Shown here: piece after piece, positions 24,665 through 58,791 of the stretch
Layout of the letters: each line of letters begins with the position of its first letter
How positions within the stretch are numbered: the first letter of the stretch is position 1
Virus record (IMG/VR): IMGVR_UViG_3300037231_000119
Span: 32,001 to 96,000 of that record
Origin: a virus
Direction: 5' to 3' (one strand)
Length of the DNA stretch: 64,000 bases
Notes under the pieces: generated by a model
Told to the model about the DNA's origin: nothing
Seen by the model: the letters and a program-made list of their open reading frames with translations, nothing else
Databases searched by the model: none
Translations under genes and position numbers: made by a program

Positions 24665-24668
24665 TCGA

Positions 24669-25381: not shown

Positions 25382-25673
25382 ACTGTCCCTCCTCTGGGCA
25401 TACATTAAGGCCGAACTCTCTGACATCTGGGCCAAAAGTAAGATGTGGATTATTGCAGGGGCAAGTCTTATTATCTATTTGAAATGGCGTCAGATTAAGG
25501 AAGCTCTTATTGTAAGAGCCGGAAATAAAGAGATTCAGCAGTCTAATGCACAAGACAAAGATCTTTCGGTAGCTGAGACCACGGCCAATGCTAGCGCTGA
25601 AGCGATCATTAAGTCTGCAGATGCCTTGCCAGCTAGCGAACCGGCCGTCGATGACAATTGGAATACCAAATGA
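25371..25673 (+). CDS. Putative i-spanin-like membrane protein
   Basis: Single TM then helical region. Confidence 0.5.
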   Translation: MSSKLSLLWAYIKAELSDIWAKSKMWIIAGASLIIYLKWRQIKEALIVRAGNKEIQQSNAQDKDLSVAETTANASAEAIIKSADALPASEPAVDDNWNTK

Positions 25674-26569: not shown

Positions 26570-26571
26570 GT

Positions 26572-27087: not shown

Positions 27088-27089
27088 AT

Positions 27090-30000
27090 TTACTCCTGCC
27101 AGGTTATGATCATATTTCCAGGATTGCCAGGGGATCCCGCTCCACCATTTCCACCCGCTGAACCCGTACTCGCAAGACTTCCCCCGCCGCCGCCACCGCC
27201 GCCACCAATTCCACCTTCGCCCGCATTGACTACGACGGAGGCCTGGCTTGCAGCGCTTATTCCTGCTGCTCCAGAAGCCCCGCCATTTCCACCCTTTCCA
27301 CCAATGGATAGTGTGACATTGCCAGCAAGATAGTCGGTACCACTGGACGGTGCGCCCGCTCCACCTCCTCCACCTCCCAAAGATCCGCCGCCCGTTGAAG
27401 CGGCTGGGTTTCCACCGCTGATTGCAAAAGGAGAGTTCCTTTGCGTAATGTTATTGGGAAGGATTCCCGCCGCATTTGTTAGGCCGCCAGCTCCACTTAC
27501 CGCCCCATTTCCGCCATATAAACCAGGTCTAGAACCCGCTGCTGCACCTATAGTCGATAGGGAACCTCCTCCTCCACCAAATCCCTCAACTGTACCGACC
27601 CAGGTATACGTATTCCCAGAAATAGCAAAAGTCGTATTGCCTCCCTGTCCACCAATAGTTCCAACGGTACCCGTAGCACCGGCCGCATTAGCCACGGCTC
27701 CAGCGCCACCCGCTCCACTGGTTCCGGCAGCTCCGATGGTAATAGTCGCGGTTGCACCAGGAACAACCGTGAGCGTAACCGGAGTGGATATTGCCGAGGG
27801 CGCGCTCCCCCCGCCGCCGCCCCCAGCAGCACCTGCCGCTGTTGATCCACCACCTCCTCCACCTCCTCCCGATCCTCCACCTGTACCGCCCCGCCCCGTC
27901 GCTGTGATGTTCGTAACTCCAGCAGGTATAATAAAAGAACCACTTGAAGCAAAAGATGCACTTGCTAGGTTGGACGAAGCTGAAACTTTCCACCAGTTCG
28001 TCCCATCGCTTTGGAACGCATAATTCCCGTAATTCGCATAAAGCTTTACTGGGATGGTAGATGCTTGGCCCTCTATTGTTTCCGTTCCAAATGGCGCAAC
28101 GGTCAATTGATTGGTCCCCAATGCCCCACCAACATCCTTAATGCGGAATATTTGTCCAGTTGTGGTCGTAGGATTTGGGAGAGTAACAGTGAATGCTCCA
28201 CCAGACGTATTTACGAAGACCGTTGCATTAGTTGCCGTAATAGCATAAGCGGAAGTTTTTGTAGAAACTAAAGCTGACTGTCCAGTTCCACCATTAGAGA
28301 ATGCAACGACACCAGTTACATTAGATGCGGTCCCGGTTATAGATCCGCTGGGAATAACATAATCGGTACCAGCGATGGCAGCACTAATCGCCGTGCCATT
28401 GCCCTTCAGTATACCTGTGATAGAGGTCGATAAAGTAATCGCAGGCGTGGTTGTAGAAGTGGCAACAGTTCCCGTAAATCCATTTGCGGATACCACTGAA
28501 ACGGAAGTAACTGTTCCGGAAGTAGCGGGAGCGGCCCAAACAGGAACTCCACCAGAAACTGTTAAAACATTACCTGTAGATCCGATAGGAAGTCTAGCAG
28601 CCGTAGGAGTTGAATTCTCATAAACTAAATCACCAACCGTAGTCATCGGGCTTAAGGCATCAAAAGCCGCATTGGGCGTTGTTTGACCAGTTCCTCCGGT
28701 TGCAATTGGTAAAACTCCCGACACTGCTGTCGTAAGAGAAATAGCTGCGGCCACTACATTCTTGCTTGCATCAAGCTGAAGAGGTAGTGACGCGGTAAGA
28801 GTAGGCAATACAATAGTTCCACCAAAAGAACTGGGGGCTGTACCGCTCTGGTTAATGAAATAATTTCCAGAATAGGTGACATTATCAGATATGAAAGCAG
28901 TATTTGTTCCTCCAGAGAGGGCTCCGAACTGGATAAGATTCTTATATCCAGTGATCGCTGTGGAATCGGCTGTAAATAGTAATGCCGCATAATCAAACGC
29001 TAGAGTCCCAGTTCCAGTGAGCGTCACCGGCTGGGCAAGGATACTAGCTATTTGCTGACCCGTATTTGTATTTGTATAAGTTGAACCTGACGGAACATTA
29101 AAAGATAATTGCGTGTGAATACATCCAATGGATCCGGTATCGGACGTAGTAGCTGTAATTGCTCTTACCAATGAAATCTTGCTTCCAATAAAACTCTGGG
29201 TGTTAGTTGTATTGCCCGAAATAGTAAGGCTGCTATTTAGACCAAAATAAGCTCCACCCGTCAAAGGCGACGCAAGCGCGGATTTCAGGGTGATCGTTTC
29301 CGTTCCAGCACCTATTGGCACGTTAGTTCCGATACGAAGTGCGATATTGGTGTTATCCCAGAAGAAGTTCGCATTGTTTTGAGTGAGGGCTGTCCCATTA
29401 GAGAAAATAACAGAACCCGCCGTTAAGGCAGAGCTGTTACCTGTACCACCATTACTTATACCTAGAGTTCCGGTAGTCTGGGTAAGAGGAAGGCTCAAAG
29501 CTGATAAGGTAACCAATGTACTATTTGTTGTGGTAGTTATGTCAGACGCAGTTCCCGTAGTATTCTGATTTAATATTGGTATATCACCAGAAACAAGTAA
29601 TCTAAAGGTGGGTTCTGCGGATCTTCCCCCTACAGGTCCTGCGAATACTGAGTGCTGGTTTTGATCATCAAGGGCAAAATTTAATGTACCGGAATTAGTT
29701 ACCGGACTGCCGGTGATAGTATAGATGGGGAGAGCACTTATATCTGCAAGGGCAACAGAAGTTACCGTTCCACTTCCTGGAGCTGCAGGTGTAACCCATG
29801 CAGGAATACCTCCAGAAACAGTCAATACTTGACCAGTAGAACCAACGACTAATCGGACATTGTGCGTACCGTCATAATAAAGCGTGTCGCCAGCGGTAGT
29901 CAGGGGAGAAAGAGCGTCAAAAGCGGAAGTTTGCGTAGTTTGACCTGTGCCACCATTTGCAATTGCGATCGCTGTTCCATTCCAAACACCAGAAGTAATC

Positions 30001-32391: not shown

Positions 32392-33486
32392 CTATTGGGA
32401 AAGAAAGTCGAGGCAGCGCTTAATGCAGGATTGCTTGTCTAAATCCCAGTCTTCTTCTTTGATGTGGAGGATTTTGATGCCAATTGAAAGGAAATAGAGG
32501 TCCTTATCTTCGTGGTAGGTTATAATAGCGGAGTCGGACCAAAGATTTTCGTTTTTGGCCTTTCTCATATATTCAAAACTATGATAATAGCTGCCATCGT
32601 ATTCTATGCTTTTACCCAGTTCAGGGACATATATGTCCAGCTCCAAGTACCTCTTTTTATTATTGGGATCATTATAAAATCTCTTTTTTATCGTACCCGG
32701 ATAAATTTCAGAAACTAAAGCAAAAATCTCTCTTTCGGCAATGGATGAACCTTTCAATGTACATTTAGGACACCTTCTTCCATGCCCCTTAAAATTATAG
32801 AAAGTTGTTTCGTACGGATGATTTTTGGGACAAATAAGAAGAATTTTACCTTGGGGATCATATTCTTCCGACTTTAACAAATATCCCTCTTTTTCAACAA
32901 ACTCTTTTATGGATGCCAGAGAATGGGGGCGATTATGAGCGCAGTGTTGACATCTCGCTTTTGCAGACAAAAATCCATTCATCGTAAGAGTTGTTTCGTG
33001 GCCAGCCGAACAAAAAACATTAAGTTTTTGATGGGCGTTTTTGTAATTTGTAGTAATTAGCCTATAACCTTCTTTACGTAAAATGTTAGAGATATCGTCA
33101 ATAGTATATCTTTTAATGCCTCGACATTCGTTACACCCAGAGCCATGGCCGATATAATTATCTAGAGAGGTAGACACTGCGTGCCCGTTTCTACATACCA
33201 TATTAAGTTTTTGTTTCATATTACTGTATGAGATATCAGATAGCGTATACCCATCTCGTTTTAGAATGGCCCTAACACTTTCGACTGTATAGGAAGCCTT
33301 ATCGAGGCAAGTAGGGCATCGACTTTTCTGACTTGTGAAGCAATTAAGTGTAACAAACCAAGGATGTCCCTTTGGACATACGACCTCCAACTTCTTCCCA
33401 CTCCTCACATATATCTTAGATATGAGAGTGTACCCCTCCATCTCAAATATATCTTTTACTGTTTCGTAGCTAAATTTTACCGTCAT
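32392..33486 (-). CDS. Homing-endonuclease-like protein (zinc-ribbon repeats plus Vsr-like nuclease)
   Basis: Four CPKGH..RCPxC-type repeats; ELDIYVPELGKSIEYDGSYYH. Confidence 0.85.
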   Translation of the reverse strand: MTVKFSYETVKDIFEMEGYTLISKIYVRSGKKLEVVCPKGHPWFVTLNCFTSQKSRCPTCLDKASYTVESVRAILKRDGYTLSDISYSNMKQKLNMVCRNGHAVSTSLDNYIGHGSGCNECRGIKRYTIDDISNILRKEGYRLITTNYKNAHQKLNVFCSAGHETTLTMNGFLSAKARCQHCAHNRPHSLASIKEFVEKEGYLLKSEEYDPQGKILLICPKNHPYETTFYNFKGHGRRCPKCTLKGSSIAEREIFALVSEIYPGTIKKRFYNDPNNKKRYLELDIYVPELGKSIEYDGSYYHSFEYMRKAKNENLWSDSAIITYHEDKDLYFLSIGIKILHIKEEDWDLDKQSCIKRCLDFLSQ

Positions 33487-34126: not shown

Positions 34127-36877
34127 TTAGCTTGCTGACTGTTGAACCGCACTGAGAGCCAAATTAATTGCTACAAAGTATATGCTCGTAGTCAATTTTG
34201 CTTCAACATTCACAGTCATAGTGGGTGCCGAAAGTGTAATGCTGGCATTTTTATATCCAAGAGGTGCATCATTCGACGTAGTCACCATCTTAAGCTTCTT
34301 GTAGAAGTCGAATCTCTGTTGCAAGAAGCTCAGAGCAGAAGCTGCAGTGACATCGGCCACAGATCTTCCAACAATTGCACTCTGAAAACTTTGCGCGAGG
34401 TCAAGAGCTAAAATGTCAGATAGATATACGGCCTGAATCGAATTATAAACGAAGCTCGAATTTAGGCCAAATGAGGTCTGATCGGATACCCACAGGATTC
34501 CACTTGTATTTTGAGTTAGAACCAAAAGGCCCGCAATGATCGCCTCACTCACATCCGCTGGATCACCAGAGTCATATCCAACTGGGTCCTGGAACGAAAC
34601 GATATTGGCCAAGTGGTTACAAATAGATTTGTAGAAACCGCCGCACTGTGTGCCAGCCGCTACTGCCGCCGCATACCAAGGCAAGAACAACTGATTCACA
34701 CCAGCCGAATTTACCTGAGTCACTTGCTGACACGTCAGAGAGCAACGATAGCTTGCCAAGCTCTGAGCTTGTGCCCTAGCATTAGCAAACGTGTCATTGA
34801 TGGACAGAATCGCCATACGATTATGTTTCAGGGTAGGGGTTGAGAACTGAATGCAATGTGACTTAAGAAGCTCATTGATGGCGTCGATCGTATAAGTCGA
34901 ACTTGGATCCGTATTACCGGCCGTAATATCTTTACTCGCATCCTGAGAGAACAAAGGAACAATGATATTGACCTGGATACCGCCCATTTGAGCGATCGCA
35001 TTTACAATGTCATTCGCAGACGTTCCACCCAAAGCGCCACCAGTCAAGAACACCATAGAGCCTGGTACTGGAAGACCGGAAGTAGCCGTAGGAGTAAAAC
35101 CAACCGCCGTAGAAGTATTCAATTGATTCTGGAATGTAAACAGGGAATTCTTCACACGTCCTGGTTGATCTCCGTCCGTAGAAGCAATCCCGATAGCCGT
35201 AACATGATCCAGAGAAGAGGTTGGATTCGAAGTAGCAGAGCTTCCAACCGTTGCCGTATACCCTGGCTGCGTGTTAATGAATGCCGCCAACTGGCCAACC
35301 GTAGTATACTGAGAAAGAACGATTGAGAGATTAGCGCCAGTTCCACCCGTGACGGTCGTTGTCAGCATGGTTGAGTTAATGGTCATCGTTCCGGTCGTTC
35401 CAGCGTACCCAACACTCAAGGCAATAGCTGGAGCAATATTGAACGTCTCATTAATCTGCGCAGTCGTATTGATAATCGAGACTTCAACCGCTGGCTCTTC
35501 GCTAGAAGTAATAAGTCCAGCCGTCATACCAAGAGCGGCCAAATCACCAGGAGTAGAATCGATCAACTCAAAGCTTTGTCCAAATCCACTCGCGTATGGT
35601 GTACCTTCAGCAGCCATCGTGAACACCAGAGTATTCATCGCAGACCCAGCAGATGCCGTAATACCAGCAGGGAGAAGAAGATTCAGCTCCGTAATCAACT
35701 CAGCAATATTGGAATGCGCAGCTCCGACGATAGTTCCAGGTGGAAAGCCAGTGACCGAATTGGTAGGGCTTGATCCCACGTTTCCAGTTACAACCGAAGA
35801 CCCAGTATTGGTAACCCCGGAAGAACCCAAAAGACCGAATGAACCAGCATAGTTAAGAAGAGGGGAATTCTGAGCATTGACAACCGTTGCGGCACTGAGA
35901 GTAACTGCGCCCGTAAGAGCAATCAGGGAACCGTTAACAGTTCCACCCAAAGTATCTGTAATGCTATCTTCCGCAATGACGTTACCAGCGAAGGTTCCGC
36001 TAAAGCCAGAATTGATCGTAGCCGAAGATCCAACTACCCAGTAGATGTTAGCAGCTGTCGCACCACCGGTCAGCGTCATGGTCGGGATACCACCAGAACC
36101 GGTAACCAGAGTGCTAGAGGTCTTGATAACATACACCCCAGCGCCATTGAAGGTTAGGGTTCCAGCTCCAGAAGCTGCCAAGCTAGCTGCGCCCGTGCTA
36201 TAAACACCGGGAGTCAACGTTTGGCCGTCGAGAGTCGCAGAGATCGGAGTAGCGGTCATACCGGTCAGGCTAGTATAGGCAGACATGGCGGCAGATTGAC
36301 CAGCGGCCGATTCAGTAGGAGTAACAGGGCTAGAAGATCCGGAACTGAGTGTAATTACGTGAGATGCTCCACCGTTCACACGAATAGAGAACGTATCGCC
36401 ATCCAGAGCGGTACCAAAAGCAGGGACCGTATTCCCAGTAACTTGTGGAGAAACTTCGTTACTGATGGAGGTAACCGTGTAGTTGAAGAGATTTCCAGCT
36501 ACACCGAAGTTAAGCGCCGTGAGAGTTCCATAACCAGGAACGGAAGCGGTCGCCTGTGTACCCTCGTTGGTTTTGAGGATATAGATGGAAGTAGCCGTTC
36601 CGGAAATGTCTGGATCGTTACTAGGAGCCGAAAGAGCAGCAAAGGCGTCAACGATTGGACCCGAGCCGTAAATAGCTCTTACTTGGTTGTAAGCGCTAGG
36701 CCCGAAGAAGTTGTTAGCCAACGTAACTTCAGAGTAGTTAGGGCCTTGAGCAGCTTCACCCATGATAAGAACAACCCCTGAACTCGCAAGTCCGGAAGCT
36801 GTTGAAATTACAGTGGTATTTACGTAGGCGCCAGGGATTGGGGTAGAAATCCAGGGAGTATTTAAAAATTGTGCCAT
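34127..36877 (-). CDS. Tail sheath protein with inserted circularly permuted DUF3494 domain
   Basis: N-terminal IPGAYV...LIMGEA.QGP...YGSGPIVDA; C-terminal sheath core; insert at about aa 185-388. Confidence 0.9.
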   Translation of the reverse strand: MAQFLNTPWISTPIPGAYVNTTVISTASGLASSGVVLIMGEAAQGPNYSEVTLANNFFGPSAYNQVRAIYGSGPIVDAFAALSAPSNDPDISGTATSIYILKTNEGTQATASVPGYGTLTALNFGVAGNLFNYTVTSISNEVSPQVTGNTVPAFGTALDGDTFSIRVNGGASHVITLSSGSSSPVTPTESAAGQSAAMSAYTSLTGMTATPISATLDGQTLTPGVYSTGAASLAASGAGTLTFNGAGVYVIKTSSTLVTGSGGIPTMTLTGGATAANIYWVVGSSATINSGFSGTFAGNVIAEDSITDTLGGTVNGSLIALTGAVTLSAATVVNAQNSPLLNYAGSFGLLGSSGVTNTGSSVVTGNVGSSPTNSVTGFPPGTIVGAAHSNIAELITELNLLLPAGITASAGSAMNTLVFTMAAEGTPYASGFGQSFELIDSTPGDLAALGMTAGLITSSEEPAVEVSIINTTAQINETFNIAPAIALSVGYAGTTGTMTINSTMLTTTVTGGTGANLSIVLSQYTTVGQLAAFINTQPGYTATVGSSATSNPTSSLDHVTAIGIASTDGDQPGRVKNSLFTFQNQLNTSTAVGFTPTATSGLPVPGSMVFLTGGALGGTSANDIVNAIAQMGGIQVNIIVPLFSQDASKDITAGNTDPSSTYTIDAINELLKSHCIQFSTPTLKHNRMAILSINDTFANARAQAQSLASYRCSLTCQQVTQVNSAGVNQLFLPWYAAAVAAGTQCGGFYKSICNHLANIVSFQDPVGYDSGDPADVSEAIIAGLLVLTQNTSGILWVSDQTSFGLNSSFVYNSIQAVYLSDILALDLAQSFQSAIVGRSVADVTAASALSFLQQRFDFYKKLKMVTTSNDAPLGYKNASITLSAPTMTVNVEAKLTTSIYFVAINLALSAVQQSAS

Positions 36878-37207: not shown

Positions 37208-37780
37208 TTATCCAGGAAGCTTCGGTTTTGGTTGGGCCTTGATTCCTTCAAGACGTTCTTTATGGGCATCTTTGGAGCCTTCTTTTGCGATCATTTCGCC
37301 AATACCATCGCCAGATTTTCCGTAACCAACAGCGCGTTTTGCACGATCACCGGCAATAGGATTTAGAGGATCCTCGCCTTTATCCATTTCCTTAGCCTTA
37401 GACCCCTTTTTCATTTCCATTTTGCCCATAAATTTAGCCAGCTTATAAGAGCCCTTTTCATGATGCTTAGGATCTTGATTCGTAGCTTCATGCTGCTGAA
37501 CGTCTTGTTCAACCTTTTCACCAAGATCGGCATCGGCTTTAGCATCTGGGTTCTGTTCAGACATTCCCATTTTCTTCATAGGATCTTCAGATTTGCCCAT
37601 CTTAGCTTTAATGGCGCCGTCGATCTTATCAGCAGACTTTTCAGAATAGCCTTCTTTTTTGAGCTTAGAATGAATTTTAGCCCAATCGCCTTTAGCCAAC
37701 GTAGAGTTTTTATACATCTCTTCCGCTTTCTTCAAAACGGCGATGGCGGCTTCGGCTGGTGTAAATTTTTTATCAGACAT
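37208..37780 (-). CDS. Lys-rich putative internal head protein
   Basis: LAKG, MGKSE, MDKGE motifs; late motif at 37801. Confidence 0.65.
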   Translation of the reverse strand: MSDKKFTPAEAAIAVLKKAEEMYKNSTLAKGDWAKIHSKLKKEGYSEKSADKIDGAIKAKMGKSEDPMKKMGMSEQNPDAKADADLGEKVEQDVQQHEATNQDPKHHEKGSYKLAKFMGKMEMKKGSKAKEMDKGEDPLNPIAGDRAKRAVGYGKSGDGIGEMIAKEGSKDAHKERLEGIKAQPKPKLPG

Positions 37781-39148: not shown

Positions 39149-39964
39149 TTACCCCTTATATTTCTGCAAGATCGCTGGAAGGACACTATTATTCCATTCA
39201 TTTTGGGCCCACTCTGCGGCATCTGGGAAAAATCCCTTAGCGTTTTGAGCCGGATATTGCCACTTCCCATCATCGCCTTCTATGACAGTTCTGAAGGTAG
39301 TCATTACTTTCTTAGCGTTACCATTCTTATTCAAAACCTGATATATGTGGAGCCTTGCGAGTTGCTCGGTATTTCCACGCCCCGGTATCTTACTTGGAAT
39401 GTCAAAAACATGTAAGGGGAGAGGATGTCCATTAGGCCCCATTTTACTTATTCTCGGGCTCCCATTAGAATCCTTTTCAATTCCGCTCCACGAAAGCTTT
39501 TGACCTTTTAGAAAACCTTTGATACTTCCAATAAGCTCCTCATTCTTAGCAAGAGTCTTAATATTCAAACTGTCGGATTCTTTACCTTGTGGCATTGGAA
39601 TAATTTTGTAATGCTTGCCTTTATTAGGGCCATTCTTAACAGTCTCAGAATCTTTCAAGAGACCGTATTCTCCAGGCTTACCCTTCATATCCCACGGCTT
39701 ACCTTCTTCGATAGGAACTGCCGGTTCATTTAACGTGATCTCCCAAAGAAAGTCGCTGATTTGTACGGCTTGGCTTAGACTAGCTAGATATTTTTTTGCA
39801 ATCTGAGTATTTAGCTTTTGTCCCACCTCTTTTACCATGTTGGCGTGGGTAGCTTCCGCAAGCCCCTTAATACCTTTTTGAACATCCTTCGCGATTTCTT
39901 TTGCAAAGTTATTCAGGTATTGGGTTAAAGAGGAGATGTCTAGGTTGACTTTGATATCGCTCAT
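39149..39964 (-). CDS. Putative neck/tail completion protein
   Basis: IEEG..WDMK...LL...IIP...TFRTV...W.YP pattern. Confidence 0.65.
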   Translation of the reverse strand: MSDIKVNLDISSLTQYLNNFAKEIAKDVQKGIKGLAEATHANMVKEVGQKLNTQIAKKYLASLSQAVQISDFLWEITLNEPAVPIEEGKPWDMKGKPGEYGLLKDSETVKNGPNKGKHYKIIPMPQGKESDSLNIKTLAKNEELIGSIKGFLKGQKLSWSGIEKDSNGSPRISKMGPNGHPLPLHVFDIPSKIPGRGNTEQLARLHIYQVLNKNGNAKKVMTTFRTVIEGDDGKWQYPAQNAKGFFPDAAEWAQNEWNNSVLPAILQKYKG

Positions 39965-41151
39965 AGAATACCCATCATCTTCAATTTAGGCTCATTCCAA
40001 AGCTCAGCATTAGGAAATTGTGTAAGAAACCAATCCCATTTAATTTGGGAATGAGGTCTCATATACCCCTTAATTTCGACCCAAGTATTAGGCTCTATAA
40101 GAAATAGATCTGGGCGATATGTCTTAGCTGTCCCAGATTTGGTAAAAAGGGGCGTCGTGAATGTTTGGGGTTGCCACAAAAAATCAATCTTTTTGGAATT
40201 AAGGTAATCCACTACTTTGGGTTCGTAACCGGCCTGACAAATAAGTTCCTCCCCAGTTTTCCAGTGTATTTTTAGGGTAGTATTTTGTAGTTTTTTAGCG
40301 TGCGTTAATGCATATGAGGGATCCTGAGATAGATGTTCTACCCCATACCTCTCCAGATTAGTTTTCCTTATCTTATCTAGTTTTCTTTTGGGATGACCTA
40401 TAAATTCCGCTCTAGGGAGTGACCAGAATTCACCGTGGTCCTTGTCAACGAAACGTGCCGTTTCATTCAGCCCCGTGTAGGTAGTTTCGTCTAAAATAAA
40501 TTCGTCCCCGAACTTCTTTAATTTTAATCTTACCTCCTCAATATTCAATTTCTTACCCTCATTTGCCCTATCGGGATGCCCATGGCCATCCATAACTCTA
40601 GCTGGGGTAGAAATCCATTCTCCGTAATCTACATCCATAAATGAACATTCGCTACGAACTTTCGTATGAGTAGAATCTATTATAGAGACAGTATTGCCAT
40701 GTTTCTCAAAAATGATTTTTTTGATATTTCTCAAGGGGGTTTTTGTTCTGTCATACCCTCTTTGAGGATGACCTCTCCCCCTCAAAACACCAATAACTGT
40801 CGCGGGCCATTCCCCATAGTCGCTATCCACAAAAATAGCCTTCTTGTTTACATTTACATAAGATGTTCGCACAATACGTACCGTATCACCATGTACGCCC
40901 TGAATGCGCTTCTCGATATCATCCACAGAAAGTCTTTTCCCGCTAAACGCATACCTTTTTCTCTTTGGATGGCCCTTGCCGTCCCTATAAAGCGCTGCCG
41001 GAATTGCAGTGAAATTACCAAAAGCCTCATCTATAAAGACAGCGGTAGTTTTTACGTCTACGTAGGAGGATTCTTCCATCCCAATAACGTATGGAAGTCT
41101 TCCCTGGACTCTTTCTAGAACTTCCTTACATGTAAGCTTTTTAATACCCAT
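39961..41151 (-). CDS. Homing-endonuclease-like protein (repeats plus PD-(D/E)XK)
   Basis: Four D..YGEW..P......GHP repeats; TNLERYGV; YRPDLFL...VEIKG. Confidence 0.85.
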   Translation of the reverse strand: MGIKKLTCKEVLERVQGRLPYVIGMEESSYVDVKTTAVFIDEAFGNFTAIPAALYRDGKGHPKRKRYAFSGKRLSVDDIEKRIQGVHGDTVRIVRTSYVNVNKKAIFVDSDYGEWPATVIGVLRGRGHPQRGYDRTKTPLRNIKKIIFEKHGNTVSIIDSTHTKVRSECSFMDVDYGEWISTPARVMDGHGHPDRANEGKKLNIEEVRLKLKKFGDEFILDETTYTGLNETARFVDKDHGEFWSLPRAEFIGHPKRKLDKIRKTNLERYGVEHLSQDPSYALTHAKKLQNTTLKIHWKTGEELICQAGYEPKVVDYLNSKKIDFLWQPQTFTTPLFTKSGTAKTYRPDLFLIEPNTWVEIKGYMRPHSQIKWDWFLTQFPNAELWNEPKLKMMGIL

Positions 41152-41187: not shown

Positions 41188-41415
41188 TTAATTCTTTGGG
41201 GGTTTTACTGGAGCGCCTGATTGAGGGTCCTTCACTCTGCCTTCCAACATGGAGACGAACCTGATATCTTCTGGATCGTTCGGATTTACCCATTTCATTT
41301 GCGACTTACTTGATAATCCGCCCGGTGGGATAGGGGTTTTTGCAACATGGACAGTAGTATGTTTGGAGGGTAATTTAGCTGCTGAGGGTAGTCCTGCTAC
41401 CCCACCGCTTTTGGG
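41188..41415 (-). other. -1 programmed frameshift extension of the 792-aa protein
   Basis: Slippery C-CCA-AAA (41415-41409); hairpin GGGTAG-CAGGA-CTACCC 6 nt downstream; 75-codon open -1 frame. Confidence 0.7.
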
Positions 41416-43775
41416 TCACTCTGACCCTCCGCTTTCGGTCCATCTGGCGCACCGGATTGTGTAGCTTCCGCGACCGCACCCGGATCCTGAGGTGCATCTG
41501 AACTCATCTTAGGCTCGAGACCTAAGAGTTTGCACAGCTCGATCATGGCCTTAAGCATCTGGATCGTGCTTTGGTAAAGTCCGGGACTTTGATCTTTAGC
41601 CTCTTCTAGGAATGCCTTATTTGCCTTAAATCCCTGTAACGTTTGGGATACTTGATCTATAACCTGCGCCCTCTTTTGTTCCTGCGCGTGGTCATCTAAA
41701 CCACCCTGGAGAACTCCAGCCATATCTGGTTCATCCTGGCCATCTTCAGCCATCGGATCTTGTCCCGATTCTTGTCCCAATTCTCCATTTTGTCCCGATT
41801 CCTGAGCCATCTGATCCGCATCGCCCTGTGTACCTTGATAGTCTGGAGAGGCCATACGATCGATCGGACCTTCTTCTCCGCCTTGACTTCCAGGGCAATC
41901 TGGACAGTTACATTCATGGTCGCTATTCTGCATGTCCTTTTCAGCATCTGAAACGTTATTCTTTTGCTTATCGCCAAAGTTTTCGGGGACAGAGGCCCCC
42001 TCTTCCATCTCGTCGCCTTGAGGAAGTTCAGTATTGTCAATCTTTTTAGCTTCAGCCTCAGGAGTTTGGTCACCCTCTCCTGGCTTCTGATCCAATAGGT
42101 CTAAAACTTCTTCAGCCGTTTCATGTCCTTGTAGATTGGGATCTTCTTGGCCAGTTTGATCTGGCTGCTCTTCGATAGCGTCCCCATACATCTCTTGGCA
42201 CTGCGGACAGTTGTCTGGTTGCTCGGCAGACATATCTTGGACACCCAAAGCGGTCGCATCATGTTTTGGGCAATTCGGGCAGTTACAAATATGGTCTACG
42301 TCTTGTCCTTCGGGAGTCCCAGCTTGAGCTTCTCCAACGGTTTCGGATTCACAATAAGGGCAACCATCTACGCCGCCAGCCTCATCGGGAGTATCTTGGC
42401 AGTATGGGCAGTCATCCTCTTCCGAACTTTCCTGACAATATGGACAATCATCCGTATCTATCCCACCAGTATTTTGCTGGGAAGCATCGTATTCCTTACA
42501 AGCATCACAATCATGCATCCCAGCCGAACCATCCGCATTTTCTTGAGCATCCAAATCTTGGCAATAAGCACAGTCGTCCGTACGGTTATCTTCTTGATCA
42601 GGATTCTGAAAACCCTTGTCTTCTTTGTCGGCAGCTCCGTTATGGAAGCCCTCTTCATGCTTATGAAGATTATGGGTATGTTCAGACTTATACATCTCGG
42701 GCTTAGACATCCCCGCCTTGGAATCAGATCGTAGTTCTGATGCTGGATCGCTGTGTTGGTACGCAGCTCGACTATGTTGGTCAGCTATTTTAGAATGGAT
42801 ATCTCTATGTGCGGGATCCTTAGCTCTTTCTTTGCTACCGAACGCTCCTTGTTTTCCTTGATGAAAACGCCCCAGATCATTGTGAATTTTGGCCGCGTCG
42901 GCATGATCTTGCGGAGTGTATTTTAAAGTATTGGCAAACGCTTCAGATCGAAAATGAACCGGTTTCTTAGATTGGGTATGCCCCACAATATCGGAATCCT
43001 TGGGATGAACTGGTGCCGCATCCGAATCTGATTTATGAAGACCGCATGTATGTTCATACTTTACCATAGGCGCTGTAGTAGGTGCTGGGACTACGGTTAC
43101 CACGTGCCTCATTATGGCGCCATGTTTCTGATCTCTTTTATCCGCAGCACTATGTAAGCCCTTTTTACTTCCCACCGTTCCTTTATAGTGAAGAGTGCCG
43201 GTAGTGGGGCTATGAGAAGCTAAATGATATTTTTCGCCAGGCTTTAGATCTGGGGCGCCATAGAGACCGTGTTCACCTTCAGCTTTATGTAAATCGCACT
43301 TCATATTTTCGCTCTTTTCCAGATAAGCATCCGCAAGCTTCATCTCTTCTTGATTGGCAGTTTTAGCCTTAACTTTTTCGCGCATTTTATCAATGCCCTT
43401 TTCTACTTTAGGTCCATACCAAACCGTCTTATTCTTACCTGTAGCTTTGGCGTAGAGGAGACTTCTACCCGCTTCAGACAAGTCCTTACCAATACCAACT
43501 GAAATATTTAAGTCGGTGGCCTCGTAGTACTTACTTCTTAGCTCTTCCACATCTTTAGCGGCTTCAAACGGGATGCGAAAACTCCCCTCATCTCCACCAC
43601 CAGAAATTCTTTTACCACCACGCTCTGATACCCACTGATTAACGATCTCGTGACCCAAATCGATCTTGGCCGAGATATTGTGGAGAGCCTTCTCATCATT
43701 TGCAATGATGGCCTTACCGCACTGGCGACCAGCACCGTCCGCATCATAAGTAAGTCTGAGCATGGGCTTACTCAT
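41397..43775 (-). CDS. Head-module polyprotein: mCpol-like cyclase, His-rich modules, acidic CxxC repeats
   Basis: YDADGAG...GG.RISGGGDEG...ISVGIG..LSEA...L..AKATGKN; LEKSE/LHKAE/LHKSD/MYKSE motifs. Confidence 0.75.
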   Translation of the reverse strand: MSKPMLRLTYDADGAGRQCGKAIIANDEKALHNISAKIDLGHEIVNQWVSERGGKRISGGGDEGSFRIPFEAAKDVEELRSKYYEATDLNISVGIGKDLSEAGRSLLYAKATGKNKTVWYGPKVEKGIDKMREKVKAKTANQEEMKLADAYLEKSENMKCDLHKAEGEHGLYGAPDLKPGEKYHLASHSPTTGTLHYKGTVGSKKGLHSAADKRDQKHGAIMRHVVTVVPAPTTAPMVKYEHTCGLHKSDSDAAPVHPKDSDIVGHTQSKKPVHFRSEAFANTLKYTPQDHADAAKIHNDLGRFHQGKQGAFGSKERAKDPAHRDIHSKIADQHSRAAYQHSDPASELRSDSKAGMSKPEMYKSEHTHNLHKHEEGFHNGAADKEDKGFQNPDQEDNRTDDCAYCQDLDAQENADGSAGMHDCDACKEYDASQQNTGGIDTDDCPYCQESSEEDDCPYCQDTPDEAGGVDGCPYCESETVGEAQAGTPEGQDVDHICNCPNCPKHDATALGVQDMSAEQPDNCPQCQEMYGDAIEEQPDQTGQEDPNLQGHETAEEVLDLLDQKPGEGDQTPEAEAKKIDNTELPQGDEMEEGASVPENFGDKQKNNVSDAEKDMQNSDHECNCPDCPGSQGGEEGPIDRMASPDYQGTQGDADQMAQESGQNGELGQESGQDPMAEDGQDEPDMAGVLQGGLDDHAQEQKRAQVIDQVSQTLQGFKANKAFLEEAKDQSPGLYQSTIQMLKAMIELCKLLGLEPKMSSDAPQDPGAVAEATQSGAPDGPKAEGQSDPKAVG

Positions 43776-47016: not shown

Positions 47017-48660
47017 TTATTTCTCTTTTCCGTAGGCTTCTCTGACTTTTGCAACGTGCCAGTGATTTTTGATATCCTGTTTATTTTTTAAAGCGCCTTT
47101 TGTTCCCTGAATTCCATTCAGCCACCCATAGGCTAAATTGTCTGGATTGTTACCCAATACATGCTCCATATGGGATAGGTGCCTATCAGCGATGGTGTTT
47201 TCGAGACCCTTATGGTCGTTCATATAATTATGAAGCTGTTGACCCTTAAGCGCTAAAGCCTTGCCATGTTTTGAGGCCAAATCTTTATGGCCTTTGATAG
47301 TCTCTCTAATAGTTTCTGGCATCAATCCATAGGCGCCATACGCATGCTCAGCCCCATGAATTGGTCCACCACCTGCGGCATGATTCGTGTTTTTTCCACC
47401 ACTCGACTCAACAGAGGCGATAGCCCTAAGCATCTTAGCGTGGTCATAGTTTGATTTAGGTTGGGCGTGTTGAATGCTGGCAGGAGACCGATTTCCAGCA
47501 TCTGTTTGAGGAGCAGATCCAGCTAAGGCGCCAGCCATACCAAGTGCAATACCGGCATTTTTGAGTGCGCCTTTTTCCAAAGACTCGCTTTTATCAAAAT
47601 CTGGATTGTTAAGTCTAGCTCTAGCCTCTGAAAGATAGTTCGGACTTCCAGGCTTAGATTTCATTTTATTCTTTATTGGAGCCATTCTTTCAGCTTCGAG
47701 ATGCTCTAATTGCTGTCCCGACTCTCTCTTTATATCTTTAGCATGGCTGATATTTTTTGATCTGGATTGTTGAGAAGCCATCACGGAATTAAGCTCATCA
47801 CCTGCATTACCGGCCTTCGCTTTATTGGGACTAAGAGCGGCTATGCCCATAAGAGCGCCAGCGGTTTTTTCTTTCCAGCCCTTGTGGAGTTCACATTCTC
47901 CCTTACTCACTTTCTCAGGCAACTTCTTTCCCTTGGTCGCCTCATCCCATTCATGGACACCAGCTTCACCACCTAGAGCTTTTTCTCCATTAGGGGTGTG
48001 CGCCCATCTCTCTTGTGCTAGACTTTCGTAAGGCTTGGCCAATGGCTTCTTACCGAGAACATTTTCAGCTTTAGTAACCGGCACATTCACCTTAGCCGTA
48101 AAATCCGAATGATCCGGAAACTTGGGTTCGGCAGTATCGGCTTCGTGATGGTAAGTTTTGATAGTTTTGGGGCCCTTATTGAGAACTGCATTTCCAAAAG
48201 ACAATCCGGCTTCATGGGCCGTTTTTGCACCGGAAGATTTAATTTTATCCCAAGTACCTTTATCAACACTCACATGCGGAGACCATTCAAATTTTGAAGG
48301 GTGGCCCATATGAGCAAACTTTCCATTGTGCTCCTTCATCTTATCGGCCGAGTTCCCCTTTAATTTGACGACAAATACGTCGTTCCCATTACGATCTTTA
48401 AACTGGGCAGGCTCTATTTGCGTATTTTTAGCATCAGGGGGATTTAGTGGGAGATGTTGGGCCAAATCATGAATGGAGTGAAGATGGTCCTTTTCTTTAT
48501 TGAATTCTTTCAGACTAGCGTGATATCCAATGTTATTATCGGGCCTGTGAGTTTGGCCGTTGATCTTTACGGGATAGCCAAGAAGGATTCCCTCTGAGGC
48601 TAGTTTCGCATAACCGGCAGGATCTTCTTTTTTGTGGAGGTTAGGCGCATTTTTTGACAT
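47017..48660 (-). CDS. Head-module polyprotein: 2H phosphoesterase (Acb1-like) and lytic transglycosylase
   Basis: YHASL (H47) and PHVSV (H129); MLRAIASVESSGG...AYGAYGLMPET...LAYGW. Confidence 0.75.
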   Translation of the reverse strand: MSKNAPNLHKKEDPAGYAKLASEGILLGYPVKINGQTHRPDNNIGYHASLKEFNKEKDHLHSIHDLAQHLPLNPPDAKNTQIEPAQFKDRNGNDVFVVKLKGNSADKMKEHNGKFAHMGHPSKFEWSPHVSVDKGTWDKIKSSGAKTAHEAGLSFGNAVLNKGPKTIKTYHHEADTAEPKFPDHSDFTAKVNVPVTKAENVLGKKPLAKPYESLAQERWAHTPNGEKALGGEAGVHEWDEATKGKKLPEKVSKGECELHKGWKEKTAGALMGIAALSPNKAKAGNAGDELNSVMASQQSRSKNISHAKDIKRESGQQLEHLEAERMAPIKNKMKSKPGSPNYLSEARARLNNPDFDKSESLEKGALKNAGIALGMAGALAGSAPQTDAGNRSPASIQHAQPKSNYDHAKMLRAIASVESSGGKNTNHAAGGGPIHGAEHAYGAYGLMPETIRETIKGHKDLASKHGKALALKGQQLHNYMNDHKGLENTIADRHLSHMEHVLGNNPDNLAYGWLNGIQGTKGALKNKQDIKNHWHVAKVREAYGKEK

Positions 48661-49648
48661 CTGCCCCTCCTAAGAAATCTAGGCAACGTTGAATGCAGGA
48701 TTGTTTATCTAAATCCCAGTCCACCTCTTTGATATGGAGGATTTTAATGTCCTTAGTCGCAAAATGAGCATCCTTAAGGTCGTGGTAATTATAGACGTCT
48801 TCGTCTGGCCAATGTTTACGCGACCTTTTTAGGCCCTTAAAGGAATGATGATAGGTGCCATCAAATTCTATGCCAAGTTTTAGCTCTGGAACGTAGATAT
48901 CTATATCAAAACGTTTAATATGAGGTTTCCCCTCTATGCTAACTTTAGAACGTAACGTATTAGCGGTAGGAAAAAACGCTTTGACGTTATCCGAAAGCTC
49001 TTTCTCTTTAAGGGAAATGCTTCTTGATTTTTTCATATGTGAACATACAATATCCAGTATACCCAAATTTCTCGCTGCATCCCAGGCACCCGCCCCATAT
49101 TTTTTAAATTCCCCACGACTATTGTATTTTAGAGCCTCTTGATGGATCTTTTCTACCGTATCCCATTTGACTTCCCACAGGGGGGTCATATGAACACAAA
49201 AATCTTCTATTATTCCCTGCCTGTGCATCGCGCTATAAACACCCGGATGTAAATCTCTAAGTTGCTCTTTACTATTGCAAGTAAGTGCTATGCGCTTAAG
49301 ATCTTCTAGGGAATAAGCCTCATTGCACTTTTCGCCCATAAAGGCGCAAATATCGTCAAGCCACCCCATTCTTTGAGCTTTGTCGTAAGCTCCTGCACTG
49401 CCCCTAGCAAAAGAAGTTCTATCGGCATAATTATATGCTTCTTTTTGTACTTCCTCAAAAGTCTCCCATTTAGGTTCCCATAAGACTTCCATATGGGAGC
49501 AAATCCTGTCTAAAAATTCGGGACCTTTTCGCCAAGCTGCCTTATAAGCCGCATTACTATATTTTTGAAAATCAATACGGCTAAGATATTTGAGAGCTTC
49601 CGCCCTCAATTCTTCTGGTGTCCATCTGTGCCGTTTTTTAACGCTCAT
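48641..49648 (-). CDS. Homing-endonuclease-like protein (helical repeats plus Vsr-like nuclease)
   Basis: EALKY.SR.DF repeats; DIDIYVPELKLGIEFDGTYHH. Confidence 0.85.
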   Translation of the reverse strand: MSVKKRHRWTPEELRAEALKYLSRIDFQKYSNAAYKAAWRKGPEFLDRICSHMEVLWEPKWETFEEVQKEAYNYADRTSFARGSAGAYDKAQRMGWLDDICAFMGEKCNEAYSLEDLKRIALTCNSKEQLRDLHPGVYSAMHRQGIIEDFCVHMTPLWEVKWDTVEKIHQEALKYNSRGEFKKYGAGAWDAARNLGILDIVCSHMKKSRSISLKEKELSDNVKAFFPTANTLRSKVSIEGKPHIKRFDIDIYVPELKLGIEFDGTYHHSFKGLKRSRKHWPDEDVYNYHDLKDAHFATKDIKILHIKEVDWDLDKQSCIQRCLDFLGGADVKKCA

Positions 49649-53121: not shown

Positions 53122-54525
53122 TTAGGTAAACAATTGTCCTTGCAAATTCTCGACGATTGCATTTTTCCGTGGCGCCTCTACTGCGAGCGTAGTCCACCTG
53201 TAAAAAGCATTGTTAATGCTCAATTGAGAGATACCGAGCTGAAGCTTTTTAAAGCCACTCAGTTCGCCCATGTGTCCCGTATCCTTCTGAATCAGGAAAC
53301 CCGTGAGAGCGCCAGGAGCCATGTTGCCAAGGTCCGTGAACGTCGCACCACTTGGGGCCGCCGCGATATTCCCGATGAAGAGAACACCCGGAGAAACCGT
53401 AGCTGCCACACCGGCCGCCGTACGATACACACGGTAGTAGAGAGCGCCAGCAGCCGCACCGATCGTCAGAGTGACCTTGTTACCAGCGAGAGCAGGCGTA
53501 ACGGTCGAAACGGCCGAGAGAGGCCCTTCACCGTAGGCGTTAACCGCAGCAACAGCGTACGTATACGCAGCAGCCTGAAGGAGAGACCCAGCGGCCCCGC
53601 CGTCAGCAGAAGCCAACGTAGGCTGAGCAGGAGCGCCCTGAATCTGGACGTTGATCGGATTGATCTGTTTACGCAAATATTGCGACATTTCCATACTGAC
53701 GGCACCTGAGCTAGTCCACTGCGTGCGAAGATGCGCGCCAGTAGCTTCCTGAGGTGAACCAGCGAGAACGATACGTTCCTTAGCCTGGCTGATCTTGTTA
53801 TAAGCAGAGAGGCTGGAAGGATCCAACATCAGCTTGTCCGCGCGACCCATGTTAAGGGCAGAACGAACCGAGATATCTTCGATCAGGGACTGCGTAAGAG
53901 CAGCGCCACCAGCCGAGAACACAACCGTTGCGCTCGAACCGTACGAAGCGAACATCAGATCCTGTCCATTGCGCTCGAAATCCGAGGCGCGAACCTGGAG
54001 ATCCCAACCACGCATATTGGCGAGAGCAGGAACTAGGGCAGGATTGCCATCGAAGACTCCGTTGTTTGAGAAATCAGAGTTACCAGAGAACAGGTCGAAC
54101 TCGATGTCCTGAGCAAGGTTAAGGGCCGCATCCTGAGCTTGGCGCTCTTCAGCAGTCACCTTGTCAAACGTTTCAACAGCGTTCGCAACGAGCGAATGTT
54201 CGCGTGTATCGACGTAGTACGCCATTGGGACCACGAGACGAGCAGCTTGGCCAGTCTTTTTCGCGCCCAGCATACCTTCGTAAGCCGCTGATCCGCCGAA
54301 ACGGCCGACAGACAATTTACGATTGTACTGATAGAGATTCGACTTCGTATTACGAACATCGAGCATCTTCTGCAGTTTGATGGTCTCTTCGGCAGCCGTG
54401 ACATTGATCATCACTGGAGCCAGATCTTCGATTTGATAAGCAGCGCCCTGTACGAGGGTAGAAGGGGCGGCATTATATGAACCCGCTTCGAGTGCCTTCA
54501 TCAGAGTTTGGAGTTGGTCTAACAT
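53122..54525 (-). CDS. Major capsid protein (SPO1/Herelleviridae-like)
   Basis: MKALEAG...GAAYQIEDL...IEFDLFSG; strong codon bias; follows scaffold. Confidence 0.9.
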   Translation of the reverse strand: MLDQLQTLMKALEAGSYNAAPSTLVQGAAYQIEDLAPVMINVTAAEETIKLQKMLDVRNTKSNLYQYNRKLSVGRFGGSAAYEGMLGAKKTGQAARLVVPMAYYVDTREHSLVANAVETFDKVTAEERQAQDAALNLAQDIEFDLFSGNSDFSNNGVFDGNPALVPALANMRGWDLQVRASDFERNGQDLMFASYGSSATVVFSAGGAALTQSLIEDISVRSALNMGRADKLMLDPSSLSAYNKISQAKERIVLAGSPQEATGAHLRTQWTSSGAVSMEMSQYLRKQINPINVQIQGAPAQPTLASADGGAAGSLLQAAAYTYAVAAVNAYGEGPLSAVSTVTPALAGNKVTLTIGAAAGALYYRVYRTAAGVAATVSPGVLFIGNIAAAPSGATFTDLGNMAPGALTGFLIQKDTGHMGELSGFKKLQLGISQLSINNAFYRWTTLAVEAPRKNAIVENLQGQLFT

Positions 54526-56931: not shown

Positions 56932-58791
56932 ATGTCAACTTATATTTCGGGCGTAGCTAGTTGTTCCGCAATTGATACCGCTGGGGAAATTGTAGATATT
57001 AGCGGTCTCGACATAACCTCCTTAGCTCGTAGCGGTACTTGTAACTGGGAACACAAAGCCGACACCCCGGCACAAACAGTTGGCAAAATACTAAAGGCAA
57101 AAAAGATCTTTAGTGAAAAAGACTGTGAAGATTCCAATCAAAAACACTTTTGGGATAAAACCAAACTACCGTTCGTATATATAGTTGCGGAGCTTTTGGA
57201 TGATTATACGGCTAGTGCAAAAGAATGTGCTGGTCAGATGAGGTACAGTAAGGACCATCCCGAACTATCGGCAATTTTAGGATTTTCCGTTGAAGGAAGT
57301 GAAATACCCGGAACCAGGAAAAATTCCATGCTGATCACACGATCGATTGCAAGAAAGGTTACGCTTACCGTATCTCCAGCAAATAAGTTATGTATTGCTC
57401 AAATTTTCGAGAACCCAGAACAAAAATCCCAAGTCAAAGATGATTTTGAAGAATTGTTTCGTTCTGACCAAGAAGCTATCACTCTCTTCAAGTCAGGTGA
57501 AGGCGAAAAGATTTACGAATCCTATTTGGCCAAAAAAGAGCATGAGCCTAAGAAGCCGTGTAAACATAAGAAAATGAAAAAAGATGAATTTGGTTATCCA
57601 GATTCCCCTAAAACTTCAGCGCCCCCTCCAGAACCAAATAAAGCAAACGCCCAAGCTATGCAAAATGGCGCTGAATCAGGCGGTCCAAGTTTCTCTCAGG
57701 GCCTATCTAACCTGGCCAATGGCTTAATGGGTAAAAGTGAAAACTTCGGATGGTCTAAGGGTAAAGTGGATAAGGATAAAAAGGCAGTTCACTACGAACA
57801 CCCAACTCATGGCACGGTTTCCGTAATCAGACACGATAATGGCGATTTCCACGTAAAGCATCGTGGGGCTTTGGCTGGTGTTGGTGGAGTTAAGGGCTCT
57901 TTCCCTACTTCTGGAGAAGCCGGTACTCACGCTAAGAAATATATGTCTTCCTTAAGCCAGGGTAAAACTTTGGCACCACAAATGCATAATATTTCATCAA
58001 CGGACGTTGCGAGCAAAAAACATCTTAAAAAAGCCATCGATGCCGGTTCCTACAATGCCGCCCCCTCTACCCTAGCTTCCGGTGCCGCTTATCAACGCGA
58101 AAGTCTTGGTTCAAAGCCTGCAACTACTGGGGCTGAAGACCATAACTTTCAGGGGACTAAGAAGAAGGACTGGAATAAGAGATCGAAAGAAGATTACGAG
58201 AATTGGCCCCAAAAAGAGAAGTTTGAGAAGTTTATGTCTGCTAGAATGCCTCATTTGGCATTAGGCGAGATAAAAGCTCTGGGCCGGGCGATATGCTTGA
58301 AAAAGAACATCGAGGCGGAGAAAGCTCTTGGTAATTTGGTTTTGGGTAAGTCTGAAGAGGACCCCAAACTCGGCAATCATTTTCTTTTCAGTGCTGAAAA
58401 TCCAATGCATCCCCATAAAAATGAAAGCAGGATGGACCATAAACAGACCCTGGTACACTTAAAAAGTAAGGGTTTTGATGCCAATGAAGTTAAGGGGCAT
58501 TATGGCGCTCCGGAGACCTCGATCATGGTCCACAATGTTAATCCCAAACAGGCAGAGCATCTTCACGGAATAGCCTCCAAACTTGGTCAGGATAGTTCGA
58601 TCTATAGTAATAATGGCAAGCATGAGATGCGCTACCATCACGGTGAAAAGGCAGGAAAGTCCCATTTAGGTTCTGGTACCGAATTCCATAAAGAAAAGCC
58701 TAAGGATTTCTATACTACTCTACCTAATGGAAAACACTTCACTCACAATTTTGATTTTGATCAATTACATAATAGTAAAAAGAAAAAATAG
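56932..58791 (+). CDS. Prohead protease with C-terminal cargo modules including a SAM-lyase-like domain
   Basis: ISGVAS..AID..GEIVD..GLDI...NWEH...LGFSVEG...VTLT..PAN; C-terminal FSAENP..GHYG..E..LGQDS. Confidence 0.85.
   Translation: MSTYISGVASCSAIDTAGEIVDISGLDITSLARSGTCNWEHKADTPAQTVGKILKAKKIFSEKDCEDSNQKHFWDKTKLPFVYIVAELLDDYTASAKECAGQMRYSKDHPELSAILGFSVEGSEIPGTRKNSMLITRSIARKVTLTVSPANKLCIAQIFENPEQKSQVKDDFEELFRSDQEAITLFKSGEGEKIYESYLAKKEHEPKKPCKHKKMKKDEFGYPDSPKTSAPPPEPNKANAQAMQNGAESGGPSFSQGLSNLANGLMGKSENFGWSKGKVDKDKKAVHYEHPTHGTVSVIRHDNGDFHVKHRGALAGVGGVKGSFPTSGEAGTHAKKYMSSLSQGKTLAPQMHNISSTDVASKKHLKKAIDAGSYNAAPSTLASGAAYQRESLGSKPATTGAEDHNFQGTKKKDWNKRSKEDYENWPQKEKFEKFMSARMPHLALGEIKALGRAICLKKNIEAEKALGNLVLGKSEEDPKLGNHFLFSAENPMHPHKNESRMDHKQTLVHLKSKGFDANEVKGHYGAPETSIMVHNVNPKQAEHLHGIASKLGQDSSIYSNNGKHEMRYHHGEKAGKSHLGSGTEFHKEKPKDFYTTLPNGKHFTHNFDFDQLHNSKKKK

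Follow-up and report, generated by a model that had tools for sequence, protein, structure and literature searches.

What does a gene that joins a phosphodiesterase fold to a peptidoglycan-cleaving fold do among the structural genes of a virus? The question is raised by an open reading frame (ORF) of 547 residues, P0001, in the 64,000-nucleotide stretch that we refer to as the window (positions 32,001 to 96,000 of IMG/VR record IMGVR_UViG_3300037231_000119). The source record is 162,446 bp long and rated complete by CheckV, and the virus is an uncultured Mx1-like myovirus whose closest cultured relative is Myxococcus phage Mx1 (46.7% identity between the capsid proteins). The P0001 gene sits between the capsid and sheath genes, in the head-neck part of the structural module (Table 1). 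An initial annotation of this ORF proposed an Acb1-like 2H phosphoesterase fused to a transglycosylase, with hydrophobic helices exposed by cleavage, and the strings on which it drew are all present in the translation (YHASLK with H47, VFVVKL at residues 95–100, W126-S-P-H129-V-S-V, LHKG-WKEKTAGALMGIAAL at residues 258–276 and LEKG-ALKNAGIALGMAGALAG at residues 361–381). P0001 is a multi-enzyme polyvalent protein, in which a 2H domain and an SLT-like domain are encoded together among virion genes. On balance, P0001 is more likely than not to be head cargo that the prohead protease processes and that is ejected.

The N-terminal domain can be recognized from conservation as well as from structure prediction. 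P0001 contains 34 His residues and four occurrences of H-x-[ST]; in an alignment of 38 diverse homologue pieces (alignment A1, 27–68% identity), which spans stand-alone proteins of 160–216 residues as well as copies embedded in longer proteins (up to 1,668 residues), the sole invariant columns are H47 and H129. The consensus motifs surrounding these residues are Y-H-x-[ST]-[ILV]-K and P-H-[IV]-[ST]-[VL]-D. The AlphaFold2 (AF2) model of the domain, a bilobed α+β fold, has a predicted local distance difference test (pLDDT) value of 89.9 and places both catalytic His residues on β-strands, and this combination of conservation and strand placement exceeds chance by far, bearing out the two motifs named in the initial annotation. 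The 2H fold that it proposed was also recovered with Foldseek against the PDB, where nearly all of the top ~48 matches listed are 2H enzymes, at an E-value of only 1.5e-3. Structural comparison using VIA gave Z-scores of 9.9 for Arabidopsis CPDase (1jh6), 9.6 for 1vdx, 9.3 for both LigT and YjcG, and 9.2 for rotavirus VP3, with superpositions covering 131–143 residues. Furthermore, the matches in BFVD and the ESM Atlas are phage '2'-5' RNA ligase', cyclic phosphodiesterase and Acb1 clusters, and 2H folds are also found in actinophage capsid-morphogenesis fusions.

Sequence models place the domain less closely. None of the curated 2H models in Pfam, including PF02834 and PF13563, matches P0001, and the relatives in alignment A1 give weak Pfam matches to PF13563 (5/38, best E 4.6e-5), Acb1 (5/38, best E 0.015) and PF02834 (2/38). 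A profile of the N-terminal domain yielded only sub-threshold matches to Acb1 and YjcG among PDB sequences (E 0.3–1.1). The structural models indicate that the N-terminal domain is a 2H superfamily member with intact catalytic His residues that forms a clade of its own. The specifically Acb1-like identity given in the initial annotation was rejected, as the Z-scores for Acb1 (7.0–7.8) fall below those for CPDase, LigT, YjcG and VP3 (9–10), and the Pfam Acb1 model (PF23474, cut-off 27 bits) has no match to P0001 at E<=1 and none in the genome at E<=10. Consequently, homology to Acb1, together with the cyclic-nucleotide nuclease activity that it would imply, is unsupported beyond the superfamily level.

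At the opposite end of the protein, the predicted transglycosylase domain has proved equally recognizable. The best structural match in VIA is Cj0843 (Z 12.3, root-mean-square deviation 2.8 Å over 121 residues, 22% identity), followed by Slt70 (residues 465–599, Z 11.7) and phiKZ gp144 (Z 9.6), and MltC and MltE also superpose. In an alignment of 44 diverse C-domain homologues (alignment A2) the residues E418, G422, H427, W513 and G516 are invariant; of these, E418 is the Glu of the VESSGG motif, and further motifs of the domain are GLMP (445–448) and WLNG (513–516). The Pfam SLT model (PF01464) scores 13.4 bits on P0001 (E 0.058, below the 21.3-bit cut-off) and was, apart from two insignificant PHROGs, the only match in whole-protein single-sequence searches, which gave no PDB sequence match. 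A C-domain profile likewise had no match among PDB sequences, and some homologues carry a precomputed PF01464 match. By its model, the C-terminal domain is a family-1 lytic transglycosylase fold, helical and lysozyme-like, with a Glu-Ser catalytic pair at the end of the first helix, in agreement with the SLT-like domain originally proposed. The genome also encodes a canonical SLT protein of 158 residues (PF01464, E 3.2e-12) outside the window (L004 1459-1935, equal to 158453-158929 of genome C1). This protein is likely the endolysin, and the presence of a separate endolysin candidate makes it more likely that the SLT domain of P0001 is used at entry.

Homologues of P0001 are numerous (131 at 90% clustering; 666 representatives at E<=0.001 in HMMER), and tblastn against GenBank phages at 1e-5 gave no match. 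The two end domains occur together, apart from each other and in giant proteins. In close relatives the 2H domain is N-terminal and the SLT domain C-terminal, with VTC (PF09359), NUDIX or GNAT domains inserted between sites of a short motif described below. The position of the gene in the structural module is kept in related contigs of 116 kb and 159 kb, and the syntenic gene of Mx1 encodes a 1479-residue protein that combines GNAT, ART-PolyVal (PF18760), NUDIX and SLT-like domains with the same motif; its SLT-like segment is 31% identical to residues 411–544 of P0001. The presence of ART-PolyVal in this syntenic architecture places P0001 among the phage polyvalent proteins. The Mx1 ORF lies at L005 20690-25129 (record 24404-28843) and is annotated 'NUDIX hydrolase'. 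It is followed by a 619-residue PI3/4-kinase/HipA-like 'kinase', and both proteins contain the motif.

The substrate of the 2H domain can be approached from the same comparisons. Within the overall picture of an ejected protein, that the domain is a phosphodiesterase acting on cyclic or 2'-5'-linked immune oligonucleotides is a tentative assignment, and RNA ends are a still less likely substrate. The alternative that fares best keeps the same architecture and has the 2H domain act on RNA, as a 2',3'-cyclic phosphodiesterase or Usb1-like RNase that would process RNA ends of the host or the phage at an early stage of infection. The best structural matches favour it, as CPDase, LigT, YjcG and Usb1 (Z 8.8–9.9) rank above Acb1, and so do the relatives, which match 2_5_RNA_ligase2 better than Acb1 (E 4.6e-5 and 0.015, respectively). 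An RNase role is moreover one of the two options proposed by Iyer et al. for the 2H domains of polyvalent proteins, which are never linked to RNA ligases and were suggested to be RNases or degraders of defence nucleotides (PMC5512222). However, gaps of 1–2 in Z lie within the noise where a substrate is to be judged, and the co-occurring NUDIX, VTC and GNAT modules, together with a neighbouring mCpol fusion, point to nucleotide chemistry. No Rnl1, Rnl2 or RtcB ligase was found encoded in the genome, leaving no such enzyme to complete a repair, which speaks against RNA heal-and-seal repair and led us to disfavour it. The RNA alternative as a whole is considered unlikely, if far from negligible.

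How the domains might be parted is suggested by the motif itself. The strict form tested, [LMIVF]-x-K-[SAG]-[ED] (Phi-x-K-[SAG]-[ED]), occurs 24 times in the 7,030 residues encoded by the head-module ORFs (37–59 kb of the window), where shuffled sequences contain 4.3 ± 2.0 sites (maximum 12 in 1000 shuffles). The rest of the genome (43,026 residues) contains 15 sites, with 17.3 expected from shuffles. The head module thus differs from the rest of the genome (Fisher p = 1e-11), and the enrichment in its proteins is about ten-fold. This enrichment is confined to the form ending in Glu or Asp and to head-module proteins; the relaxed motif [LMIVF].K[SAG] alone was discarded, being observed 199 times genome-wide with 175 expected. 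Seven of the sites lie in the scaffold-like protein, four in ORF 37208-37780, four in the mCpol ORF 41397-43775, three in P0001 and two in the protease. The canonical sites of P0001 (VTKAE195, VSKGE251 and FDKSE355; p = 0.005) all fall in linkers that are modelled with low confidence. Orthologues of the scaffold-like protein in related contigs contain eight sites (L001, 3285-4265) and ten sites (L003, 3707-4720), and in Mx1 the sites cluster likewise in the scaffold-like protein, the portal and the polyvalent protein.

Prohead-protease sites in T4, phiKZ and SPN3US have a characteristic signature, namely a motif common to the scaffold, the protease, the portal and internal proteins (PMC10052503, PMC5694885). 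From this signature we infer that Phi-x-K-[SAG]-[ED] is the cut site of the prohead protease in the Mx1-like phages, and the enzyme that cuts it is presumed to be the product of ORF 56932-58791. The placement of the sites in homologues is consistent with this assignment. At the position of the N-terminal leader most homologues have L-x-K-A-E-D-P, and a motif-like string is found in the first 40 residues of 25 of the 38 homologue pieces, internal copies in long proteins included. Additional modules are inserted at the VTKAE position in homologues, V-x-K-[SAGT]-E at the end of the conserved module is kept in nearly all of 80 homologues, and the LEKG-like string with the uncharged run behind it is kept in 36 of the 44 C-domain homologues. 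In stand-alone C-domain homologues the LEKG-like string comes after a short N-terminal peptide. The sites of multi-module homologues coincide with module boundaries determined by BLAST, as in P0004, where they lie at residues 7, 190, 487, 543 and 763. The initial annotation had placed putative cut sites at LHKG and LEKG; the idea of cut sites between the domains gains support, as it is at the module boundaries that the head-module-enriched motif is found, but LHKG and LEKG are themselves non-canonical and lie 6–7 residues downstream of canonical sites.

The distribution of the motif also bears on whether P0001 belongs to the head at all. It could instead be a lysin associated with the tail or baseplate, comparable to phiKZ gp181 or T4 gp5, with the motif being a feature of linkers that has nothing to do with a protease. 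This would fit the occurrence of the C-terminal domain at the end of proteins of 1,500–2,500 residues that resemble giant tail proteins, the match of a 312-residue ORF upstream of the P0001 gene to a PHROG named tail fiber protein, and the appearance of phiKZ gp144 among the fold matches. However, the proteins in which the motif is concentrated (scaffold-like protein) or present (protease, Mx1 portal) are all head components, whereas the motif pattern is missing from the sheath and the other large tail proteins, making a tail location quite improbable.

Several further segments lie between the two enzymatic domains. Comparison with 120 homologues using BLAST divides P0001 into residues 1 to ~190, a highly conserved part (195–258), a variable part (260–355) and residues 357–547. 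The ~55-residue module within the conserved part is the best-conserved portion of the family (70–85% identity), is present in every architecture, belongs to no recognizable family and has no second copy in the genome. A likeness of residues 195–255 to DUF3008 was considered but is unsupported by Pfam, the ESM Atlas leads to DUF3008 or T7 scaffold-like proteins being weak, and the Pfam models DUF3008, DUF6321 and Phage_T7_Capsid have no match in the genome. This module may direct P0001 into the prohead.

The two hydrophobic stretches follow the second and third canonical sites and are the most hydrophobic parts of P0001, with Kyte-Doolittle means over 19 residues of 0.48 (stretch 1) and 1.08 (stretch 2), below the usual level of membrane helices. 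The hydrophobic helices described in the initial annotation are thus partly retained: the segments are where it put them, and the run after LEKG is conserved, but a reading as standard transmembrane helices was rejected, because both stretches are too short (13 and 16 residues) and low in hydropathy. Several features of the homologues suggest a different description. The equivalent of stretch 2 stands at the N-terminus of the stand-alone homologues P0237, P0249 and P0250, some stand-alone homologues have an ordinary N-terminal signal peptide at the equivalent position (P0237, P0249 and P0203), and a small-x-small pattern (A-L-A, S-L-A) closes the stretch in many sequences. A more apt description of the stretches is that of signal-peptide-like or signal-arrest-release (SAR)-like leaders, which a cut preceding them would expose at a new N-terminus. 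In homologues of ~430 residues only the second stretch is present, directly after the conserved module, and the pair in P0001 has the appearance of a cassette that was duplicated. The resemblance of these Gly/Ala-rich, weakly hydrophobic stretches to SAR and signal sequences, and their N-terminal, Sec signal peptide-like position in stand-alone homologues, would also suit a non-virion late protein whose 2H domain remains cytoplasmic and whose internal signal-anchor or SAR-like stretch serves to export the transglycosylase, either for lysis or to exclude superinfection, but this is very improbable given that two stretches would return the SLT domain to the cytoplasm, that both are very short, that the gene position in the head-neck module is conserved, that a separate small SLT endolysin candidate is present and that head-type motif sites flank every module.

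The favoured course of events, in which P0001 is head cargo, can be set out in five steps. First, P0001 would be made late and enter the prohead. Next, as the statistics and conservation of the motif suggest, the prohead protease would cut at the linker motif and at nearby L-x-K-G sites, to give a free 2H phosphoesterase of ~20 kDa, the 55-residue module, a polar fragment and a transglycosylase with a short Gly/Ala-rich leader. At infection these fragments would then exit with the DNA, as the analogous cases of Alt and the internal proteins in T4, the ejection proteins of SPN3US and phiKZ, and T7 gp16 suggest. The transglycosylase, whose fold and catalytic residue are in place, is proposed to cleave peptidoglycan in its glycan strands while the leader keeps the fragment at the membrane. 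Finally, the 2H enzyme, in which the catalytic residues are intact, would act in the cytoplasm ahead of all phage gene expression and hydrolyse a phosphodiester there. As substrate, a cyclic or 2'-5'-linked oligonucleotide involved in defence would be the likeliest, ahead of a 2',3'-cyclic RNA end.

Several points weigh against this scheme. We infer three of its elements, namely cleavage, virion location and ejection, and the motif, instead of marking cut sites, could be a conserved linker sequence or serve as a signal in assembly. The motif is furthermore unlike those of known prohead proteases (L/I-x-E in T4; A-x-E in SPN3US). Most N-terminal propeptides of SPN3US are lost from the head after degradation (PMC10052503), and consequently the N-terminal 2H domain might not be retained. 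Neither hydrophobic stretch has the length of an ordinary membrane helix. Lastly, the 2H fold is equidistant from RNA-end and cyclic-nucleotide enzymes and thus provides no pointer to the substrate.

Should the fragments indeed be packaged and ejected, a phosphodiesterase would reach the cell before any transcription. No counter to defences that rely on signalling, such as the cyclic-oligonucleotide-based antiphage signalling system (CBASS), type III CRISPR and Thoeris-like systems, could come earlier. The motif would represent a new prohead-protease specificity, and its sharing among proteins would allow head cargo to be predicted by a simple rule across a clade of phages of 115–170 kb, which is directly testable as Mx1 is cultured. 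How such cargo evolves can be seen from the VTC, NUDIX and GNAT cassettes that are exchanged between motif sites. A more far-reaching proposal, which we consider doubtful, is that Mx1-like capsids deliver a swappable cocktail of ready-made enzymes that act on nucleotides (2H, NUDIX, VTC/triphosphate-tunnel, GNAT, ART, mCpol cyclase and SAM lyase), each of which would form part of a head protein or of the protease by fusion and be freed at the shared cut motif. The 2H enzyme would then destroy immune oligonucleotides as the DNA enters, and decoy nucleotides made by co-packaged mCpol would silence Panoptes-type guards.

The neighbourhood of the P0001 gene contains further fusions and insertions. 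The protease ORF ends in an S-AdoMet lyase domain (PF23780, 28.6 bits, residues 497–603) directly after LGKSE471; the protease ORF of Mx1 encodes 1,239 residues and so also has extra sequence, and a GGDEF 'nucleotide cyclase' adjoins the Mx1 protease gene. The head-module ORF at 41397-43775 (-), which encodes 792 residues, has an mCpol (minimal CRISPR polymerase) domain at its N-terminus (PF18182, E 7.7e-11, above the cut-off), and its canonical sites (LEKSE152, LHKAE162, LHKSD246 and MYKSE361) come after the domain. A related contig encodes an mCpol protein in the same module (L003 16363-18051). Three HNH/homing-endonuclease-like ORFs (48641-49648, 39961-41151 and 32392-33486, all on the minus strand; phrog_559, 3339 and 681) break up the structural module, one of which overlaps the start of the P0001 gene by 20 nucleotides. 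The sheath homologue of a related contig (L001, 21226-22802) has a Pfam Ice_binding match (PF11999).

Table 1. Features of P0001 and of neighbouring structural genes, with positions in the window.
Feature	Position	Strand	Remarks
P0001, whole ORF	47017..48660	(-)	547 residues; positions include the stop codon; reading frame open
N-terminal leader, residues 1-12, ending L8-H-K-K-E12	48625..48660	(-)	candidate short propeptide and cut site
2H phosphoesterase domain, residues 17-175	48136..48612	(-)	predicted from AF2 model, Foldseek, VIA, BFVD and ESM Atlas
2H motif 1, Y-H47-A-S-L-K	48508..48525	(-)	H47 invariant; model strand 47-53
2H motif 2, P-H129-V-S-V-D	48262..48279	(-)	H129 invariant; model strand 129-132
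Canonical site V-T-K-A-E, residues 195-199	48064..48078	(-)	boundary of 2H domain and conserved module
Conserved ~55-residue module, residues 200-250	47911..48063	(-)	consensus PLMKPY.SEAQRRWAHT..GKKALGG.AGVHEWDEATKGKKLPEKV
Canonical site V-S-K-G-E (residues 251-255), then relaxed L-H-K-G (258-261)	47875..47910	(-)	
Hydrophobic stretch 1, TAGALMGIAALSP, residues 266-278	47827..47865	(-)	13 uncharged residues
Variable polar insert, residues 279-354	47599..47826	(-)	not in ~430-residue homologues; no family match
Canonical site F-D-K-S-E (residues 355-359), then L-E-K-G (361-364)	47566..47598	(-)	
Hydrophobic stretch 2, AGIALGMAGALAGSAP, residues 369-384	47509..47556	(-)	16 uncharged residues; signal-peptide-like, A-L-A pattern
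Family-1 lytic transglycosylase (SLT-like) domain, residues 405-547	47020..47448	(-)	predicted; AF2 pLDDT >90 over the domain
Catalytic E418-S419 within VESSGG	47395-47412	(-)	Glu invariant
Major capsid protein	53122..54525	(-)	phrog_752; 46.7% identity to Mx1 capsid protein
Scaffold-like protein, 301 residues	54557..55462	(-)	directly upstream of capsid gene; 7 canonical motif sites; no family match
Prohead protease ORF	56932..58791	(+)	phrog_1028; N-terminal part 34% identical to putative Mx1 prohead protease
Tail sheath	34127-36877		structural module

Comparison with known systems places these features in context. In phage-type polyvalent proteins, 2H and lysozyme domains are typical, and packaging, processing and injection have been predicted (Iyer, Burroughs, Anand, de Souza, Aravind 2017, PMC5512222). 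Like these proteins, P0001 has several unrelated enzymatic domains and is encoded among virion genes, and its syntenic counterpart in Mx1 has the family-defining ART-PolyVal domain. In contrast to them, P0001 lacks MuF, portal and zincin-like metallopeptidase (MPTase) domains, and its processing would apparently rely on the prohead protease and a shared short motif in place of an in-built peptidase. Its family also differs in consisting of cassettes placed between fixed 2H and SLT ends.

The processing of ejected head proteins by a prohead protease is established in SPN3US and phiKZ (PMC10052503). In these phages and in T4 (Alt and IPI-III), a motif is common to scaffold, protease and internal proteins, as it is here, and propeptides are removed in the prohead before the proteins are ejected with the DNA (PMC10052503, PMC5694885). 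Unlike in those systems, the predicted cuts in P0001 would split several enzymes from one chain rather than remove a single propeptide. The virion transglycosylases T7 gp16 and phiKZ gp181 and gp144, which open the peptidoglycan when the phage enters, share the family-1 SLT fold and the catalytic Glu-Ser pair with P0001, whereas the SLT domain of P0001 is C-terminal, follows a signal-peptide-like leader and is fused to a 2H enzyme.

Comparable likenesses and differences apply to the 2H domain. Acb1 (T4 gp57B and phage FBB1; PF23474), an anti-CBASS 2H nuclease, has the same superfamily fold and two HxS/T motifs and is also phage-encoded, but it is a free early protein of ~150 residues and not a virion fusion. 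The 2',3'-cyclic phosphodiesterases LigT/ThpR, YjcG and plant CPDase (PF02834, PF13563) superpose on P0001 with Z-scores of 9.3–9.9 over 134–140 aligned residues, and the spacing of the catalytic His residues in P0001 (82 residues) is of the same order as in these enzymes. P0001 differs from them in scoring below the Pfam thresholds, in its virion-polyprotein context and in having no partner ligase. Polyvalent virion proteins and head cargo processed by prohead proteases are thus already known. What appears to be different here, judging from the sequences, is a clade-wide short motif of new specificity, the exchange of cassettes between 2H and SLT ends, and the placement of leaders directly after the putative cuts.

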